Notes under the pieces: generated by a model | The model's input: the letters and a program-made list of their open reading frames with translations, nothing else | What the model was told of the DNA's origin: nothing | The model's database searches: none | Translations under genes and position numbers: made by a program | From: a virus | Virus record (IMG/VR): IMGVR_UViG_3300035696_000018 | Location: 1-64,000 of that record | Direction: 5' to 3' (one strand) | DNA: 64,000 nt | Shown here: positions 7,199-63,123 of the stretch, piece by piece | Layout of the letters: each line of letters begins with the position of its first letter | How positions within the stretch are numbered: the first letter of the stretch is position 1

Positions 7199-7322
7199 AA
7201 GATGCGTACAGCCATAAACAATGCTACGTAAACCCGTGCGTCGGTGTGTGCAAATCCACCCCCGTCCACCATATGGACGGGTAGCTCAGTAGTAGAGCGG
7301 CGGGATGCAAAAACCGCATCTT
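7199..7322 (+). ncRNA. circularly permuted tRNA inside an ACAGC-family stem (Y-RNA-like)
   Basis: 3' tRNA half (CCCGT, T arm, CCCGTCC-ACCA), TAT, 5' half (GGACGGG, D arm, GCGGG), closed by AAGATGCG/CGCATCTT. Confidence 0.7.
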
Positions 7323-7351
7323 GTATTTCCCTCCTGATATGTAAATGTGTT

Positions 7352-7942
7352 ATGAAACACATTTGTCACAGCGACGGTTGTCCCGGTGCCGACATGGCAT
7401 GGGAGAATGAAGGAAAGCGTTACGGTGTCGAAACCATTGCCTACTCTTTCCGCAATCATATTCAAGAGAGCATGAACCCTAAAATCCTAACGGTTGAAGA
7501 ACTGGCCGAGGGTTGGGAGCACGTCAAGATTGCAGACAAGACTTTGAAAAAGAATGTCGAAAGTCTTACGTCTCCTTACATGCGAAATCTTCTCTGTCGA
7601 AACTGGTTTCAAGTCAAAAATGCCGATGCAATTTTCGCAGTCGGGAAATTCGGCTCCATACGAGGAACAGTGGATGGAGGAACGGGATGGGCAGTTCAAA
7701 TGGCAGTTGACAACAAGAAGCCCGTCTATTTTTTCGACCAAACACCGCCGACATGCAACATTGGTGGTGCTCCAATGTGGTCATATTACGACTACAAAGT
7801 GAATCTTTTCATTCCGTTGACCTATTGCCCAAGTTTGCCAGAAAACTTCGCTGGCATTGGTACACGGGATTTGAACGAGTATGGAAAGTCAGCCATCTGG
7901 ATGATTTTGCATACCAATCTGGCCCATTCGTCTATCAGCTAG
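7352..7942 (+). CDS. SLOG-superfamily (YpsA/MoCo-carrier-like) protein
   Basis: HSDGCPGAD, GGTGWAVQMA and FAGIGTR motifs. Confidence 0.6.
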   Translation: MKHICHSDGCPGADMAWENEGKRYGVETIAYSFRNHIQESMNPKILTVEELAEGWEHVKIADKTLKKNVESLTSPYMRNLLCRNWFQVKNADAIFAVGKFGSIRGTVDGGTGWAVQMAVDNKKPVYFFDQTPPTCNIGGAPMWSYYDYKVNLFIPLTYCPSLPENFAGIGTRDLNEYGKSAIWMILHTNLAHSSIS

Positions 7943-7995
7943 GACTACTCGTTTTCAGCGAGAGAAACTCGGAGCGTCACCGGGATGGGCTACCA
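7921..7995 (+). tRNA. tRNA-Glu(TTC)
   Basis: CTCG-TT-TTC-AG-CGAG, CCA. Confidence 0.8.
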
Positions 7996-7999
7996 ATTT

Positions 8000-8181
8000 G
8001 TGGGGATAACATAACAGCAGTGTGCTGCCCGTGGAGGGCAGAGTGAATATGCATATCTTAACTCGGAGTAGTTACCCGAGGGCGGGTATGAAATACATGA
8101 CACCACAGCAAGTTCCCGTAGTCTAACTAACGCAAGGGGATTTGTTTGCGATGAGGGTGCAACTCCTTCTCTACCACACCA
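8000..8181 (+). ncRNA. tRNA-scaffolded RNA (~180 nt)
   Basis: GTGG/CCAC-ACCA ends, T-like arm GAGGG-TGCAACT-CCTTC, hairpin-rich core. Confidence 0.45.
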
Positions 8182-8184
8182 ATT

Positions 8185-8319
8185 TAGGTACGCACAGCGA
8201 AAAAACATGCTTATGTCAAACCGCTGATGAGAGTGCAAATCTCTCTGCCCCGGCCATATCGGGGTATAGCTTAAGTAGCCAGAGCGGCGGTCCCGCAAGG
8301 GAGCAAAAAAACGTACCTA
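8185..8319 (+). ncRNA. circularly permuted tRNA inside an ACAGC-family stem (Y-RNA-like)
   Basis: TAGGTACG-C-ACAGC; ACCGC, T arm GAGAG-TGCAAAT-CTCTC, TGCCCCG-GCCA-TAT-CGGGGTA, D arm, GCGGT; CGTACCTA. Confidence 0.7.
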
Positions 8320-8398: not shown

Positions 8399-8403
8399 AT
8401 TTC

Positions 8404-8482
8404 GGAGTCGAAGCCATCAAAGACGGGCACCCGCCTTTTAAGCGGAATAATCGAGTGGGGGCAGTACCCATCGGCTCCACCA
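8404..8482 (+). tRNA. tRNA-Lys(TTT)
   Basis: CCGC-CT-TTT-AA-GCGG, CCA. Confidence 0.8.
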
Positions 8483-8486
8483 ATTT

Positions 8487-8560
8487 CAGACGGTAGTTAA
8501 ATCAATAGACGCTCGGCAAGGGGCCGAGAAATGTGGGTGAAATTCCCATCCGTCTGACCA
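8487..8560 (+). tRNA. tRNA-Pro(AGG)-like, atypical
   Basis: CAGACGG/CCGTCTG-ACCA, CTCGG-CA-AGG-GG-CCGAG. Confidence 0.55.
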
Positions 8561-8564
8561 GCTT

Positions 8565-8807
8565 GCCAACATGGTGTGTTCGGTGCCAATGGGGCGTGAG
8601 TAAACATACCGAAATCGTATCACCAGCAGTTGATAACATCGCAATGGGCTGTAAAACGCTCGTGGGTGAAAGCCCCACAAGGTCAACTGTAAGGAACGGA
8701 ATAAGTATGTGTAGGGGCGTCGAAGGTGCTGGATTCAATAGTAGCACGCCGTAGCACATTGCGATTACCAAGCGGGGGTCTGGGTGCAAGTCCCAGTGTT
8801 GGCTCCA
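8565..8807 (+). ncRNA. tRNA-scaffolded RNA (243 nt), Thr-type acceptor
   Basis: GCCAACA/TGTTGGC-TCCA, CTGGG-TGCAAGT-CCCAG, internal ATCGCAATG/CATTGCGAT helix. Confidence 0.6.
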
Positions 8808-8925: not shown

Positions 8926-9035
8926 GAGATGCCCGTTTCTACAGCAAATCCCAAAAGGAAAAGTGATTCATTGAACATGAAAAACCAGTTGGGTTCAAAC
9001 CCCGACACCCTCGCAAGAGGCTGGGCATCTCGCCA
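8926..9035 (+). ncRNA. ACAGC-family stem element with T-arm-like hairpin
   Basis: GAGATGCCC..ACAGCAA...GGGTTCAAACCCC...GGGCATCTC-GCCA. Confidence 0.55.
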
Positions 9036-11289: not shown

Positions 11290-11348
11290 GAGATACTAAC
11301 AGCAACCAACAAAAATTCGACTGAAATTCGAAAACCAAATGGTATCTC
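11290..11348 (+). ncRNA. ACAGC-family element displaying a Phe anticodon stem-loop
   Basis: GAGATACTA-ACAGCAA..TTCGA-CT-GAA-AT-TCGAA..TGGTATCTC. Confidence 0.55.
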
Positions 11349-22184: not shown

Positions 22185-22499
22185 ATGAAACTCGAAACCG
22201 TTGTCGTCACCGCAAAATTGTTCTGTGTCTTTGCTGGCACTAGCTTGCTCACTCTTCAAACTGGTTTAGGCCAATGGTCACAGACCGAAAAAAGCCCCAC
22301 CGTTATCCAATGGGTAATGGTTGTCGGCGGCTCTCTCGGAACGGGGTTAACGGCCACGGGTGCCTTCCTGTCCAACGCCTTCGGGAACTACATGAACAAC
22401 GTCAACATCAATGGAAATGGGCCAATCACGCCTCCCACGGGAAGTGTGAATCAGGTGTTGACAGAAGCCAAAAAGCCTGATACATTGGTTCCAGAATAA
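22185..22499 (+). CDS. small membrane protein (two hydrophobic segments)
   Basis: hydropathy pattern. Confidence 0.55.
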   Translation: MKLETVVVTAKLFCVFAGTSLLTLQTGLGQWSQTEKSPTVIQWVMVVGGSLGTGLTATGAFLSNAFGNYMNNVNINGNGPITPPTGSVNQVLTEAKKPDTLVPE

Positions 22500-22514
22500 C
22501 GGTTCTTTGAATTT

Positions 22515-22777
22515 TGTCGTAAGCGACTCTACGCTGGCCCGCAAGGGTTAGAGGAAGTTCGCCGCTGCACAGCAGCTATGGGAGAGTGCAAAACACTCGT
22601 TTGGACCAAACAGTAGCAGCAATCCTAAAGTCCCAAAGGCTAGTGCTGGCCGTGGTAAAGGGAAGGTTGGAGCAGTCCCCTTTAACGGGGGACCGGGTTA
22701 AAATCCGAGAAAAATGTAGAGATAAACCAGAACGGCGGCTAAAACACTGTGCTATATGCCGGTGGGTGCGAACGACA
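22515..22777 (+). ncRNA. rnpB: compact RNase P RNA (rnpB-like)
   Basis: CR-I GAGGAAGTTCGCCG (22551) and CR-V CAGAACGGCGGCTA (22728) complementary in P4; P2 CTCTAC/GTAGAG; P3 CTGGCCC-GCAA-GGGTTAG. Confidence 0.75.
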
Positions 22778-22985
22778 GATACAGAATGGGTGGACGCCCG
22801 TAAGGAGTATTCCGATTGGGCTGCGAAGGTGACGCCCCCTGACAGCACGTTTATCACTGTCCACCCACCAATTTGACAGTAGTGGGGACGGCAGAAATGC
22901 CGCACCAGCCTCGCTCAGTATCTTGTACGGGTCGTGTGCTTACCCGCAGTGACAAGTTCACATGAATATCTGCATCAGCACTCAC

Positions 22986-23059
22986 GGGGCCGTCGTTCAA
23001 CAGTAGGACGAGTCGTTCGCAACGATTAGATAGGGGTGCGACTCCCCTCGGCTCCACCA
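22986..23059 (+). tRNA. tRNA-Ala(CGC)
   Basis: G3-U70, AGTCG-TT-CGC-AA-CGATT. Confidence 0.9.
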
Positions 23060-25864: not shown

Positions 25865-25989
25865 GAGATGCACACTGCAACACAAAAAATTCGAGGATTC
25901 GTCCTCGCCATGTCGGGCCTATCGGACGTTAAACGAGGGGCGGAAGAAGACCGTGTAGTTTATAGTGCTACGTCAAATTGATGCATCTC
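25865..25989 (+). ncRNA. ACAGC-family stem element
   Basis: GAGATGCA-C-ACTGCAA...TGCATCTC. Confidence 0.5.
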
Positions 25990-29914: not shown

Positions 29915-31843
29915 ATGGCGAACAAGCGTGTATCAGAACTGGCACCCATCACTGCCCCCGAGTTGGACTTTGCAGACCTCCTGCTCTTGTCCGACATTAC
30001 GGCACATGAGTCGAAGAAGTTACAACTGAGTGACCTCAGCAACTTTTTGCTGCTTGATGGGCAGCTAACAGGTTCTCTGCTTGGCACCGCCAGCTACGCC
30101 TTTTGGGCTGGCACGGCATCATTTGCCCTGAACTCATCCGTTCCTTCCAACGTGCTCACAGCCTCCTATCTGTGGTACACTCCCGGCTCGAACACTGGAA
30201 CCTCTTCATACGCTCTTGCTGCTCTATCAGCATCCTATGCGTTGAGTAGTTCCTATGCCATTACCGCTTCCTACGCTCTAACTTCATCCGTGGAGTTGGT
30301 ATATTCATCTGCGTTTGCCGACTATGCTCGAACGGCTTCCTATTTGCTATTCACCCCAGGTTCAACTAACGGAACTGCATCGTATGCATTGACCGCCTCA
30401 TACCTTGTCGGTGGAATTTACCAAGTCTCGGCTTCCTATGCTTCTACGTCATCTTGGGCTTGGGATGCCATCTTCGCTTCTGCATCGCTGGTTTCCTCAC
30501 AAAGTTTCTCTTCTTCGTATTCCAACACAGCATCATTCATGCAGTTCAACGGAGTTCCTAACGGAACCGCCTCCTATGCTCTGGTCGCCGGTAACGTCAT
30601 CAACAACCGTGTGGACTATGGTATCTTTACTGCCATAAGCACGTCCGTCTCAAGTTCTCAACTTGACGTAGTAGCTGTGACTCCAACGTTCGGAGGATTG
30701 AAAAATCTCACGGTTCAAGCAGTCGGAACCTACAAGGCTCCATACACAACTTCTGTGGATGGAACGATTCAACTTTGGGCTGTCAACCGTGCATACGGCA
30801 TATCCCAATCTCTCGATTCGACCCCAATCACATTCCAAGCTGGTGGAGTCAACCAAATTTCTGGAACAATTCGTTCGACTTTCGTATTGAATGGTCAAGC
30901 AAAAGTTTACGGATTGTATGAGGTTTTCGTTACTGCATCGAACGGTGTTTTCATCAGTTCCAAGAGAGCAACTCAGTACGATATTGTGAGCGACAGCGAC
31001 CAACTCGCCGTTTATCATGCCGAGCCTCTACAGTTTATCACCAGCCCATCAACGGCTATTTTGCTGTATTCGTCAAGCTTGTACCCTGGCGTTGCTTATC
31101 AAGGCTCCGCTTCGCAAGTCACATTCTCGGGGTCATATGATGTGAATCAGCTTCTTGTCCCGCCAGGAAGTGTTGGACAGATGCAATACACTTGGACCCT
31201 CACGGGATGCCAGACGATTGTTGCAGACGGAAATGCAGGATTGACTTCCATTGGTGGTCTTCCAACCAACTGTATTTCATTCTCTGCCGCCAATTGCAGT
31301 TTGGTCGAACTTCCTCCATTGGATAGCGGAAGCCTTTCGTATCTCAATGTTCCTAACAACACAATCGTTACTACATTGAATCCTCCATCGTCCATGAGCT
31401 ACATCAACGTGGCTAACAACTTCTACGTGACACTTCCTCTTACCCTTCCACCAGGATTGTCGGCCATCATTGCTGATGGATTGGGACTCACTTATGTCCC
31501 TTATGGAGTTCCCGATACTCTGCTTACGATGTCGTTCGCAAACTGCGGAAATTTGGCATCATATTTGGCACCCGCATTGCCAGCATCACTTGGTTGGTGG
31601 GATTCCCACAACTCTCCGTTGACGAACTTGCCAACATCTATTCCGACGAACACGCTTTACATGAACGTGTCCAACAATTTGTTGCAGTCAGTAACCATCG
31701 GTGGTATTGCTGCGGGACTCGTTGCTAATGGAAAAAGCAATGGTTATTTCTCGTTCCTGAACAACCCGGGGAGTGCTTCGGCATTCAACATCTTCCCGAA
31801 CATAACTACACTTCGTAGTCGTGGATGGTCAATCATATCCTAA
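29915..31843 (+). CDS. virion fibre-like protein with TASYA repeats and LRR-like C-terminus
   Basis: KRVSEL N-terminus, repeated TAS(Y/F)A, LP..L..L...N repeats. Confidence 0.65.
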   Translation: MANKRVSELAPITAPELDFADLLLLSDITAHESKKLQLSDLSNFLLLDGQLTGSLLGTASYAFWAGTASFALNSSVPSNVLTASYLWYTPGSNTGTSSYALAALSASYALSSSYAITASYALTSSVELVYSSAFADYARTASYLLFTPGSTNGTASYALTASYLVGGIYQVSASYASTSSWAWDAIFASASLVSSQSFSSSYSNTASFMQFNGVPNGTASYALVAGNVINNRVDYGIFTAISTSVSSSQLDVVAVTPTFGGLKNLTVQAVGTYKAPYTTSVDGTIQLWAVNRAYGISQSLDSTPITFQAGGVNQISGTIRSTFVLNGQAKVYGLYEVFVTASNGVFISSKRATQYDIVSDSDQLAVYHAEPLQFITSPSTAILLYSSSLYPGVAYQGSASQVTFSGSYDVNQLLVPPGSVGQMQYTWTLTGCQTIVADGNAGLTSIGGLPTNCISFSAANCSLVELPPLDSGSLSYLNVPNNTIVTTLNPPSSMSYINVANNFYVTLPLTLPPGLSAIIADGLGLTYVPYGVPDTLLTMSFANCGNLASYLAPALPASLGWWDSHNSPLTNLPTSIPTNTLYMNVSNNLLQSVTIGGIAAGLVANGKSNGYFSFLNNPGSASAFNIFPNITTLRSRGWSIIS

Positions 31844-60681: not shown

Positions 60682-63123
60682 ATGTACGTCAATGTTCTAA
60701 ACAACAACTACGGCTACGCAGTGGCGACTTACGGCAACTACGTTGTCGTCTCCAACCCTGACCTTCTCCGATGGAATTCCGCAACTGCTTCGTTGCAGCA
60801 TTCGGGGACCGTGGATGTGTTTTTATACAACCGTGCCAAAGACGAGCACGATTACGTAGGAACGCTTTATCAGGTGTGGCGTCCGATGGATGTTCTCATG
60901 ACTTCGGAAGTCGTTTCTGCCTCGTGGCATATCACGACCGAAAACAACAATTGGTATCCCGATTATCAGATTTCGATTGACAAAGACCTCTACACGTCTT
61001 CCCTCGAAAACTCTTTTGGCAAATCTCTCGACATGTATGAGAATCTGGTGGTCGTCGGCACGCCTTATCTCACACAGGTATCTCAAACGACTGCCAGCTT
61101 TCTAACTGCATCTTACGCAATGGCAGAGGTTTATGACCTGAACGCACTCAAATGGACTGCCAATAGTCATAGTGCCGCCACGTTCACGATTGACGACCCA
61201 GACCTGTACATTGACCCCAATGCCGTGACAGGCTCGTTCGGGTGGTCGGTCTCAATCAGCAAAGATTGGCTCGCCGTGGGGTCTCCATTTTACAGTGCCT
61301 CCAACGGAGCGGTGTATATCTACAAAAATGTGAGTGCGGGGAACAATTACTCATGGTCGTTGTTCCAAAAAATCACCAGCCCAGAAACTTTCGACCAAGC
61401 ACAATTCGGCTTTAGCATGAAATTGAACAAGGCCGATAGCCAATACTCTTGGAGTTTGGTGGTAGGAAATGGGAACCCATCTGCTATTGAAGCATACCTG
61501 TACGAATACAGCGGAAGTGCGTGGTCACAATCCTATGTATTCCACCCCGATTACACCAACATGCCGTTGACGTTCAATCCGAAGTATTACGCACCACCAG
61601 GACAATTTCAGACCGTGTATGGCCCCGTGGACTTCCTTACGATGAACACCACCAATGGATTCGGATATTCGGTGGGGTGCTACGATGATTCCGTCATCAT
61701 CGGAGAACCATATGACCGTATGTTCTACGAGTTCAGCGGGTCAACGCTTTATCAACAGGGTTCAGCATACATATTCGAGCGTTGCACAGATTACCCACAC
61801 GGCTTCCAACAAGTTCTTAAGACCTATGGAACTCCTACCACCCTCTACAACAACCGCATGGGATGGTCCGTGGATATGTGGGGAACTAACGCCGTAGTAG
61901 GCATTCCAAAGCTTGATGTTGAGAGCATGACTTCGTGCTACATTGCGGGAACATTGAACCAACTTCACTATTGCAACGCCGACCTTCAAACACTTTTGAC
62001 TGGTCAAGCTATGCTTGTTCAGAAAAATACTGGGTCTGGTCAATGGGGCATCACCAACGTCTATCAGAAGAAGAAGAAATACCTCAGCCCATATCGTGAT
62101 TTCGGGTATGACGTTGCCGTAGCCGATGAATCAATGGTTGTAGGTTCCCCGATGTATCTATGGGATAGCAATCGTGAAATCAACATTGTCGTTACCCAGA
62201 GTGCTGATACTAACCTCGACGACCTTACGGGAAAAGCATACATTTACAATCTGCACAACCTCCGTGACCAGTTCCACGTTGGAAACGTATTCTATCGAAA
62301 CGGAAAGATTGTCATCATGACTTCTGGCTCGGTGTTTGATGGGTTGTTCTACGCCCCAATCAATACCTACACTTACGAATACGATTTGGAGTTCGAGAGT
62401 CAGCACACCATCCTTGAGAAACAAATCATTTGCACCGTGGACCCAGGCGAATTCAACGTAAGCACCAACCCATCCTCGGTTACGAAACAAGCCTCGATTT
62501 TGGACATCAACAACAACGGGGTGTTCGATTTCCAAGACGTGGACGTGATTCTTCGTTACATGCAGTACAAGAATACGCAGATTCTCGGCCTTCCAACCTC
62601 GTTCAATTGGAGTTCGTCCATTGTTACGACAGACGACGAGATAAGTTTACTGAACTACTATCAGGCCAACACTGATAGCAGCACGACGTTGTTCTATTTG
62701 AGTCAGAGTTTCAATACTTGGGAGAACGTGGATACTTCCATGCAAACCACCTTGGATTTGAACCAAGATAATCGCATTGATATTCGGGACATGAATATCA
62801 TGTGGAAGTACTTCTCCAATCGTTTGACTCAAGAGAACTATGCCACTTTCATTACCCCAGCGTGTAACCGTCGTTTGTTTAGCGACGTAATAGATTACCT
62901 CAACGGTTTGAGCAGGAAGTTCGCTCTGCCGACGATTCAAGCCCAATTCACGGATTACGAGCGTCTTTCGACGTTCGACAAGACAGGCTCGTATTTAGCC
63001 CCAATGGCCACTACAATCGGTTTGTACGATGGGTTAAGCCTTGTGGCCGTGGCCAAGCTTGGCACGCCAATCAAGATAACACCCGAATTGCCCATAAATT
63101 TCGTGGTGAAAATGGACTTCTAA
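60682..63123 (+). CDS. FG-GAP-repeat structural protein with dockerin/EF-hand pair
   Basis: FG.S...VG.P repeats; DINNNGVFDFQD and DLNQDNRIDIRD; collar-type C-terminus. Confidence 0.7.
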   Translation: MYVNVLNNNYGYAVATYGNYVVVSNPDLLRWNSATASLQHSGTVDVFLYNRAKDEHDYVGTLYQVWRPMDVLMTSEVVSASWHITTENNNWYPDYQISIDKDLYTSSLENSFGKSLDMYENLVVVGTPYLTQVSQTTASFLTASYAMAEVYDLNALKWTANSHSAATFTIDDPDLYIDPNAVTGSFGWSVSISKDWLAVGSPFYSASNGAVYIYKNVSAGNNYSWSLFQKITSPETFDQAQFGFSMKLNKADSQYSWSLVVGNGNPSAIEAYLYEYSGSAWSQSYVFHPDYTNMPLTFNPKYYAPPGQFQTVYGPVDFLTMNTTNGFGYSVGCYDDSVIIGEPYDRMFYEFSGSTLYQQGSAYIFERCTDYPHGFQQVLKTYGTPTTLYNNRMGWSVDMWGTNAVVGIPKLDVESMTSCYIAGTLNQLHYCNADLQTLLTGQAMLVQKNTGSGQWGITNVYQKKKKYLSPYRDFGYDVAVADESMVVGSPMYLWDSNREINIVVTQSADTNLDDLTGKAYIYNLHNLRDQFHVGNVFYRNGKIVIMTSGSVFDGLFYAPINTYTYEYDLEFESQHTILEKQIICTVDPGEFNVSTNPSSVTKQASILDINNNGVFDFQDVDVILRYMQYKNTQILGLPTSFNWSSSIVTTDDEISLLNYYQANTDSSTTLFYLSQSFNTWENVDTSMQTTLDLNQDNRIDIRDMNIMWKYFSNRLTQENYATFITPACNRRLFSDVIDYLNGLSRKFALPTIQAQFTDYERLSTFDKTGSYLAPMATTIGLYDGLSLVAVAKLGTPIKITPELPINFVVKMDF

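Follow-up and report, generated by a model that had tools for sequence, protein, structure and literature searches.

Two scaffolded, permuted tRNA-like RNAs in the tRNA array of a huge phage

The tRNA array of IMG/VR virus record IMGVR_UViG_3300035696_000018 contains two stretches in which the parts of a tRNA follow one another in permuted order with the natural ends joined, raising the question of what kind of RNA a phage makes by turning a tRNA inside out. The window analyzed here is the first 64 kb (64,000 nt) of this 106,775-bp record, which is rated ~30% complete and is a fragment of a huge phage. Approximately 37 tRNA genes, all on the + strand, are arrayed over bases 1 to 28,000 (ARAGORN and Rfam), and the two elements, el1 (7199-7322) and el2 (8185-8319), lie inside this array. 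The original prediction described both as complete permuted tRNAs with a defined order of parts. Segmentation and covariation across homologous contigs confirmed this description, and we conclude that el1 and el2 are real, selected, tRNA-shaped RNAs.

Each element runs from the anticodon-stem 3′ strand through the variable loop, T arm, closed acceptor, U8-A9, and D arm to the anticodon-stem 5′ strand, with the permutation break point at 31/32. The tRNA body comprises a 5-bp anticodon stem, a variable loop of 4 to 5 nt, a 5-bp T stem with a 7-nt T loop, a 7-bp acceptor stem whose closing loop reads discriminator-CCA-TAT, a 4-bp D stem with A14 and A21, and a purine at position 26. Around this body, the element's own two ends pair in an outer 8-bp stem, P1. 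The anticodon loop had been predicted to be replaced by an ACAGC closing stem, leaving an RNA with no anticodon. This part was too strong: the anticodon stem and an anticodon-loop-like heptamer are both retained, whereas ACAGC is unpaired, lying one base past P1 and not within the closing stem. Single-sequence folding was moderately informative (z = −3.3 and −4.3), and the case rests on comparison. The features of el1 are as follows, with bit scores from covariance model R1 and family-wide values from 11 full-length members in seven huge-phage contigs (G000 to G006; G+C, 35 to 48%), both described below.

7199-7322 (+): el1, a type 1 scaffolded permuted tRNA-like RNA of 124 nt (R1, 67.9 bits, E = 5.5e-14)
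7199-7206 with 7315-7322 (+): P1, 8 bp; compensatory at 5/9 modelled pairs across the family
7208-7212 (+): ACAGC motif, invariant in 10/11 members (CCAGC in G006) and common to other scaffold RNAs of the array
7226-7232 (+): anticodon-loop-like heptamer ACGUAAA, immediately before the anticodon-stem 3′ strand, with C at the U33 position
7233-7237 with 7300-7304 (+): anticodon stem, 5 bp; compensatory at 4/5 pairs
7243-7260 (+): T arm, a 5-bp stem plus one bulged U, with loop UGCAAAU; G53-C61 is invariant
7261-7281 (+): acceptor hairpin, 3′ strand 7261-7267 with 5′ strand 7275-7281; 7/7 pairs covary and 100% of cells are paired
7268-7274 (+): acceptor loop, with A73 at 7268, CCA at 7269-7271, and linker TAT at 7272-7274
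7282-7299 (+): U8-A9, D arm (7284-7298), and G26, with A14 and A21 retained and G15 paired with variable-loop C48
7305-7314 (+): 3′ joiner J2, AUGC and then an A-run; the scaffold family commonly has an A-run ahead of the P1 3′ strand

The corresponding features of el2 are listed here.

8185-8319 (+): el2, a type 2 scaffolded permuted tRNA-like RNA of 135 nt (R1, 144.1 bits)
8185-8192 with 8312-8319 (+): P1
8194-8198 (+): ACAGC motif
8213-8219 (+): heptamer AUGUCAA, with GUC in the anticodon position; the same in 4/4 type 2 orthologues
8220-8224 with 8287-8291 (+): anticodon stem, part of tRNA body 8220-8291
8229-8245 (+): T arm
8246-8252 with 8260-8266 (+): acceptor stem
8253-8259 (+): acceptor loop, G73-CCA-TAT
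8269-8285 (+): D arm
8292-8311 (+): J2, a GNRA hairpin CCC-GCAA-GGG (8292-8301), then AGC and A7

A hammerhead candidate in el2 (CUGAUGAG) was ruled out, being unconserved and having no GAAA core after it.

Are these structures maintained by selection? Homologues were sought by IMG/VR pattern scans and with R1, a covariance model (Infernal) built from four type 2 sequences. Because mixed MAFFT alignments of types 1 and 2 misplaced the 3′ parts, the model was built from type 2 alone and the remaining sequences were aligned by Infernal. Types 1 and 2 form a syntenic pair in G000, G001, G002, and G003; G004 carries one hybrid copy, and G005 and the complete 172-kb phage G006 each have a single, more distant copy. 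The orthologues of the two elements are located as follows.

L009:503-637(-), L091:465-591, and L098:9161-9284: type 1 orthologues of el1
L009:40-174(-), L091:1062-1197, and L098:9589-9720: type 2 orthologues of el2

In the model-guided alignment of the 11 homologues, 98.3% of cells pair and 25/33 pairs change on both sides, a result reached by none of 500 shuffles, and pairing falls to 28 to 47% in slid controls with partners shifted by 1 to 3 columns. Since such an alignment leans toward its model, nine sequences were also segmented by hand, with compensatory change at 20/29 pairs and only 2/261 cells unpaired. Scanned on both strands with a strict structural pattern, the seven phage records (633 kb) returned 11 matches, all of this kind, and their reversed sequences returned none. 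The tertiary pairs 15-48, 18-55, and 19-56 also covary: at 15-48, G-C in type 1 is replaced by A-U in type 2, and D-loop position 18 changes with T-loop position 55, the D-loop/T-loop combinations being AG with UGCAAAU, GG with UUCGAAU, UU with UGAAAAU, and GU with ACAAAC.

Simpler sequence searches yielded little. The IMG/VR pattern of T loop plus CCATAT gave 1 true match in 10; a type 2 14-mer gave only chance matches beyond the known contigs; a T-arm 18-mer matched mostly ordinary tRNAs; and a metagenome scan recovered the L098 contig again together with one coding chance match. A 20-mer scan of 185,579 species genomes returned nine chance matches and no element, and among INPHARED phages nothing similar was found save a weak match to the open reading frame (ORF) between el1 and el2. 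A recent origin from a neighboring tRNA was ruled out, no normal tRNA matching either half.

If the body is that of a tRNA, what has become of its 3′ end? The acceptor loop opens with N73-CCA in all members of the five closest contigs, and NCCA is present in 9/11 family members. Type 1 has A73 as the discriminator; type 2 and the hybrid have G73. The linker that follows CCA in the five closest contigs is 2 to 7 nt long (TAT, TAT, ATTTGAC, ATAC, AT, TAT, CATATC, ATGTAT, and GAT), and its last base, position −1, is always U or C. The CCA-TAT linker that el1 and el2 had been said to share is thus a feature of this genome only, the linker varying among orthologues while NCCA is kept; NCCA itself is under selection. 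Of the ordinary tRNA genes in these phages, 177/189 encode CCA; most have U or C at position −1 (32/34 in G000), and their trailers are AUU, UUU, or CUU. The acceptor loops show the same three features, a CCA that is encoded, a trailer rich in A/U, and U or C at −1, and therefore look like the 3′ end of a tRNA joined directly to a tRNA 5′ leader. The YrlA RNA of Mycobacterium smegmatis, the only YrlA described with a 7-bp acceptor stem, is cut at that stem by RNase P in vivo and by M1 RNA in vitro, giving a 5′ piece that ends in CCA (PMC4201824). This precedent and the tRNA-like grammar of the loop make the RNase P opening proposed in the original prediction plausible, although the cleavage stays predicted.

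The opposite end of the body retains more of a tRNA than expected. Alongside the full 5-bp anticodon stem, the 7 bases directly 5′ of its 3′ strand read AUGUCAA throughout type 2 and AUGAAGA or AUGAGGA in type 1, with ACGUAAA in el1. Bacterial identity rules assign A73 to Phe, Leu, and Tyr and G73 to Asp and Asn; in the elements, A73 accompanies GAA, GAG, or GUA and G73 accompanies GUC or GUU, and in L170 both have changed together. When position 31 was joined to the heptamer in silico, ARAGORN accepted 5/10 sequences (Asp gtc in three, Phe gaa in one, and Tyr ata in one), calling el2 as tRNA-Asp(gtc). Other heptamers are defective: el1 has C33, L170 has 8 nt (one base extra), and those of G005 and G006 are not anticodon-like. 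Three observations favor a role other than decoding. The middle bases of the heptamer vary among close orthologues (GAA, GAG, and GUA), el1 carries C33, and normal tRNA-Phe and tRNA-Asp genes occur in the same arrays, both coexisting with the elements in G001, G002, and G004. The sequence of G000, a fragment, contains no ordinary tRNA-Asp gene.

How might such RNAs be made and used? A tRNA-Phe gene ends 4 nt before the start of el1 and a tRNA-Gly gene begins 5 nt after the end of el2. No sigma-70-like promoter or terminator brackets el1 and el2, and no promoter-like site lies near either. The 4- to 5-nt spacers and the missing promoter-like sites fit cotranscription with the array.

With a probability of roughly 45%, we favor the interpretation that el1 and el2 are non-decoding tRNA mimics, opened by RNase P at +1 and trimmed to CCA. 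They are two paralogous, conserved noncoding RNAs of a huge phage, each a complete tRNA body whose natural ends are joined by N73-CCA plus 2 to 7 nt and whose chain is opened between 31 and 32, the new ends being extended and clamped by a scaffold stem of 8 to 9 bp. After transcription along with the tRNA array, the tRNA end-maturation machinery would handle the acceptor loop as it handles the junction between two tRNA genes: RNase P would cut 5′ of +1, at the predicted sites 7274/7275 in el1 and 8259/8260 in el2, and 3′ exonucleases would remove the linker as far as the encoded CCA. What results would be a tRNA mimic in two pieces, L-shaped and secured by the acceptor, anticodon, and closing stems; it may engage tRNA-binding factors instead of codons, with the scaffold as a putative common handle for stability or for a protein. 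Three points weigh against this interpretation. The distant members lack CCA, their acceptors being closed by GCUAU (G005) or a 3-nt AUU (G006), and a free CCA end is therefore not essential to the whole family. A spacing of 2 to 3 nt between A76 and +1 may make a poor RNase P substrate. Finally, a pure mimic does not explain the kept heptamer and its match to the discriminator, which may be relics of ancestral tRNAs.

The sealed loops of G005 and G006 would suit an RNA that is never cut. Under this alternative, which we regard as doubtful but worth serious attention, each element is a closed adaptor of the Y RNA kind whose stem and ACAGC dock host Ro60, a Ro60-like protein, or another phage protein, while the sealed body recruits a tRNA-binding factor and CCA serves as a contact point. 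Such an adaptor agrees with the modular design of one conserved closing stem with differing cargoes at five other array sites, with the detection of these cargo variants by R1, and with the best Rfam match being to YrlA; Y RNAs are alike in architecture and also occur several per locus (PMC4201824). The expected protein partner, however, was not found. TROVE (PF05731) matched control genomes and nothing in G000 to G006 (G006 is rated 100% complete and the other six are fragments), 0/21 array ORFs, including the ORF upstream of el2, matched TROVE or DUF7873 in Pfam (E ≤ 0.01), no protein gene stands at a constant position beside the elements in related contigs, and the GNCGAAN0-1G motif is absent. 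A sealed adaptor also leaves unexplained why NCCA, rather than any loop, is retained in 9/11 members.

Other explanations take the tRNA features more literally. Working permuted or split viral tRNAs are improbable in our estimation; in these, the acceptor would be opened to a chargeable CCA and the heptamer (GUC with G73, GAA with A73) would let a synthetase charge the RNA, either once 31 and 32 had been joined by a cutting and ligating system linked to the ACAGC scaffold or as an aminoacyl carrier in two pieces that acts off the ribosome. We consider it still harder to credit that the elements are genuine permuted tRNA genes from which the scaffold is removed, 31 is joined to the heptamer via a circular or split-like intermediate, and the acceptor loop is opened to CCA, with type 2 giving Asp(GUC) and type 1 giving Phe, Leu, or Tyr. 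The correctly placed 5-bp anticodon stem and 7-nt A-U-G-N-N-R-A segment, the five ARAGORN calls on 10 de-permuted sequences, the discriminator-heptamer fit with its joint change in L170, and the want of an ordinary tRNA-Asp in the G000 sequence all speak for such genes, as do the anticodon insert in a tRNA-Asn gene of the same phage and the encoded CCA and short intervening sequence shared with Thermofilum pendens (PMC3978253). No bulge-helix-bulge is possible, however, J2 and the heptamer having no 4-bp complement, and neither a splicing endonuclease nor an RNA ligase was seen among the array ORFs. The defective heptamers, the drift of identity among close orthologues, the coexisting ordinary tRNA-Asp and tRNA-Phe genes, and the non-tRNA cargoes of the same scaffold argue in the same direction, and known permuted genes come only from algae and one archaeon (PMC3978253). 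The elements are very unlikely indeed to be functionless leftovers of a decaying tandem tRNA duplication (the 3′ half of the first copy, a spacer, and the 5′ half of the second) or a tandem-tRNA artifact of the sort behind false YrlA matches. In favor of this explanation, the acceptor loops resemble a fused trailer and leader; both type 1 joiners begin or end with AUG-N-N-A-A, which two anticodon-loop truncations would be expected to leave; and Chen et al. warned that dimeric tRNAs can mimic YrlA (PMC4201824). Yet the acceptor strands pair perfectly and covary at 7/7 positions in 11 members, the closing stem covaries too, the two paralogues are syntenic across four divergent phages (G+C, 36 to 48%), and there are no flanking half-tRNAs and no normal tRNA resembling either half; covariation brings this explanation close to refutation.

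The scaffold extends beyond the permuted tRNA-like RNAs. It consists of P1, an unpaired N-ACAGC after P1, and an A-run before the P1 3′ strand, and at least five other array RNAs carry unrelated cargo on it (2121-2241, 2250-2305, 8926-9031, 11290-11348, and 25865-25989). Those at 2121-2241, 2250-2305, 11290-11348, and 25865-25989 have the closing stem N-AG-R-U-R-C, ACAGC or ACUGC, and the A-run. The 11290 element carries a single hairpin whose loop, CUGAAAU, resembles a tRNA-Phe anticodon loop, and the 2121 and 8926 elements have an acceptor-stem-like G-CCA after the closing stem. The 8926 element represents a third type.

8926-9031 (+): type 3 scaffold RNA with the P1/ACAGC frame; its cargo is a T-arm-like hairpin plus a GNRA hairpin, not a permuted tRNA

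Type 3 always comes next after type 2, with syntenic copies at G002 4979-5083 and G003 61000-61105, and types 1, 2, and the T-arm-bearing type 3 form a conserved trio.

Further permuted tRNA-like RNAs were observed off this scaffold. A fourth permuted core, found at L178:7349-7413(+), L176:7697-7758(-), L183:3478-3540(+), and L187:7439-7498(+), comprises a T arm, a closed 7-bp acceptor, and a D arm and lies outside the ACAGC scaffold. The acceptors are closed by the loops GCUCAU, GCUUAU, ACCAUUUAC, and ACCAAGG, and the conserved sequences that flank the core, CUGAUGGAG on the upstream side and GUGAAAUCCUCC on the downstream side, may fold into a closing element similar to a kink turn. In the complete phage G006, L198:16253-16418(-) encodes a permuted tRNA-like RNA whose acceptor loop holds A-CCA plus a 12-nt linker; its closing stem, also 7 bp, is a different one and lacks ACAGC. 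At L098:9790-9935(+), a tRNA-like gene has an outer acceptor stem of GCCACUU with AAGUGGC, followed by U-CCA, and an interior T arm, closed acceptor with A-CCA-AAC, and D arm; the arrangement resembles a permuted minihelix set within a tRNA frame.

Several neighbors of el1 and el2 are also unusual. Between them, 7352-7942 (+) encodes a 196-residue ORF product that matches PHROG 768 (DprA-like, E = 3e-15) and has no clear Pfam match; the ORF is found only in this genome and is missing at the equivalent place in related contigs, and its product is therefore probably not a partner of the el1 and el2 RNAs. The tRNA-Asn gene at 5940-6085 is broken at the anticodon by an insert of ~70 nt that lacks the ACAGC scaffold. 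Three tRNA-like genes with CCA-AUUU ends (8100-8180, 8400-8487, and 8490-8572) were called by neither ARAGORN nor Rfam, and the last of these has CAAGGGG as the loop at the anticodon position, without U33. Weak alpha_tmRNA and permuted-tmRNA matches at 8455-8531 are merely the junction of two neighboring tRNA-like genes. At 22515-22777, a AGAGGAAGUUCGCC stretch recalls the P4 region of RNase P RNA; Rfam gave no match over 22300-23000 at E ≤ 1. Beyond the array, two large ORFs are not Ro60-like by sequence, one having YopM/IpaH-type leucine-rich repeats and the other no match. At 29915-31843 (+), a 642-residue protein without a Pfam match resembles the leucine-rich repeats of YopM, SlrP, and IpaH over residues 430 to 600 (E = 3e-11); a surface or binding role in the phage is probable.

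These findings matter in several respects. tRNA mimics of the YrlA type have so far been tied to Ro60 and are poorly understood, and the same inside-out design now appears without Ro60 in a phage tRNA array. The design keeps every signal read by tRNA end-processing enzymes, on a scaffold that also bears other small RNAs. If the acceptor loop is opened, the phage would be making a tRNA imitation in two pieces whose CCA end is free, and this RNA would be a candidate decoy or adaptor in the struggle for host tRNAs (tRNA-cutting defenses, stress sensing, and RNA repair). If the halves were rejoined, permuted tRNA genes would be known for the first time outside algae and archaea. R1 provides a direct handle for finding and testing the family.

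How do the phage elements relate to known RNAs? YrlA (RF02553), the one Rfam family with any resemblance to the elements, is the best non-tRNA match of both, with T arm, closed acceptor, and D arm aligned (cmscan), bearing out the YrlA topology suggested originally. The further suggestion of a Y-RNA-type identity fared worse. Scores were 21.7 bits for el1 (a partial match to model positions 23-85) and 17.6 bits for el2 versus a gathering score of 69. YrlA RNAs are defined by a tRNA-like domain, a 5′ GNCGAAN0-1G motif that presumably contacts Ro60, and a Ro60 gene within ~4 kb on the same strand (PMC4201824). Only the first, a permuted tRNA-like domain with a loop-closed acceptor, is found in el1 and el2, where the conserved 5′ motif is instead N-ACAGC, mostly followed by AA; AGCGAA occurs only in el2 and the L098 type 1 element, without the first G of the YrlA motif. 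Membership in the Y RNA family is not supported, whereas the YrlA topology is shared. Like YrlA, the elements run from the anticodon-stem 3′ strand to its 5′ strand and are closed by a stem of the RNA's own ends, and YrlA likewise occurs in phages and with a second RNA bearing a T arm. The 7-bp acceptor of M. smegmatis YrlA, its opening by RNase P, and its CCA end are the fate proposed here; however, CA is added there, whereas the full NCCA is encoded in the phage loop. The phage elements further differ in sitting in a tRNA array with no Ro60 gene within 4 kb or in any of the seven records and in retaining the full 5-bp anticodon stem and the anticodon-loop-like heptamer.

Permuted tRNA genes, known only from algae and one archaeon, have intervening sequences of 1 to 74 nt, and two T. 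pendens genes encode CCA (PMC3978253). As in Cyanidioschyzon merolae, green algae, and T. pendens, the phage elements place the 3′ half upstream with a short acceptor-joining sequence (in the phage, 2 to 7 nt after an encoded CCA, much as in T. pendens), and leader pairs with trailer; in those organisms, opening of the acceptor loop is attributed to RNase P and a 3′ nuclease. Those genes, in contrast, have a bulge-helix-bulge, a splicing endonuclease, circle ligation, and proven aminoacylated tRNAs, whereas the bacteriophage-borne elements break at 31/32 and have a heptamer that is degenerate in some members. No bulge-helix-bulge was found in types 1 and 2, nor any 4-bp complement between J2 and the heptamer or the end of J1; leader and trailer form a plain 8- to 9-bp stem far from the 31/32 junction.

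Two-piece tmRNA (RF04321 and RF01849) resembles the elements in placing the acceptor 3′ strand with CCA upstream and in yielding a chargeable two-piece RNA once an intervening segment is excised. Unlike it, the elements have no G3-U70 (pair 3-70 is A-U, C-G, U-A, or G-C), tag reading frame, or pseudoknots and possess a full D stem; 124 to 135 nt leaves no room for the tmRNA parts, and at el1 and el2 neither ARAGORN nor any Rfam tmRNA model gave a match. Searches for ordinary tRNA were likewise negative by ARAGORN and at the Rfam gathering score (RF00005), apart from a 16-bit partial match at 7275-7335. In Nanoarchaeum equitans, tRNA halves are separate genes joined by splicing endonuclease and ligase at a bulge-helix-bulge. 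An opened phage RNA would similarly consist of two halves, the 5′ one extended at its 3′ end and the 3′ one at its 5′ end, with the extensions paired in a helix that keeps them together, but neither separate genes nor enzymatic joining at a bulge-helix-bulge is seen in the phage. Species 1 and 2 of T4 are stable non-tRNA RNAs encoded between phage tRNA genes and matured by tRNA-processing enzymes; as stable RNAs of a phage tRNA cluster they are alike by description only, and we know of no report that they are permuted tRNAs. The present family is absent from Rfam and, for huge-phage tRNA arrays, was not found in the published literature searched. We conclude that the phage elements constitute a separate, so far uncatalogued family with YrlA-like topology.

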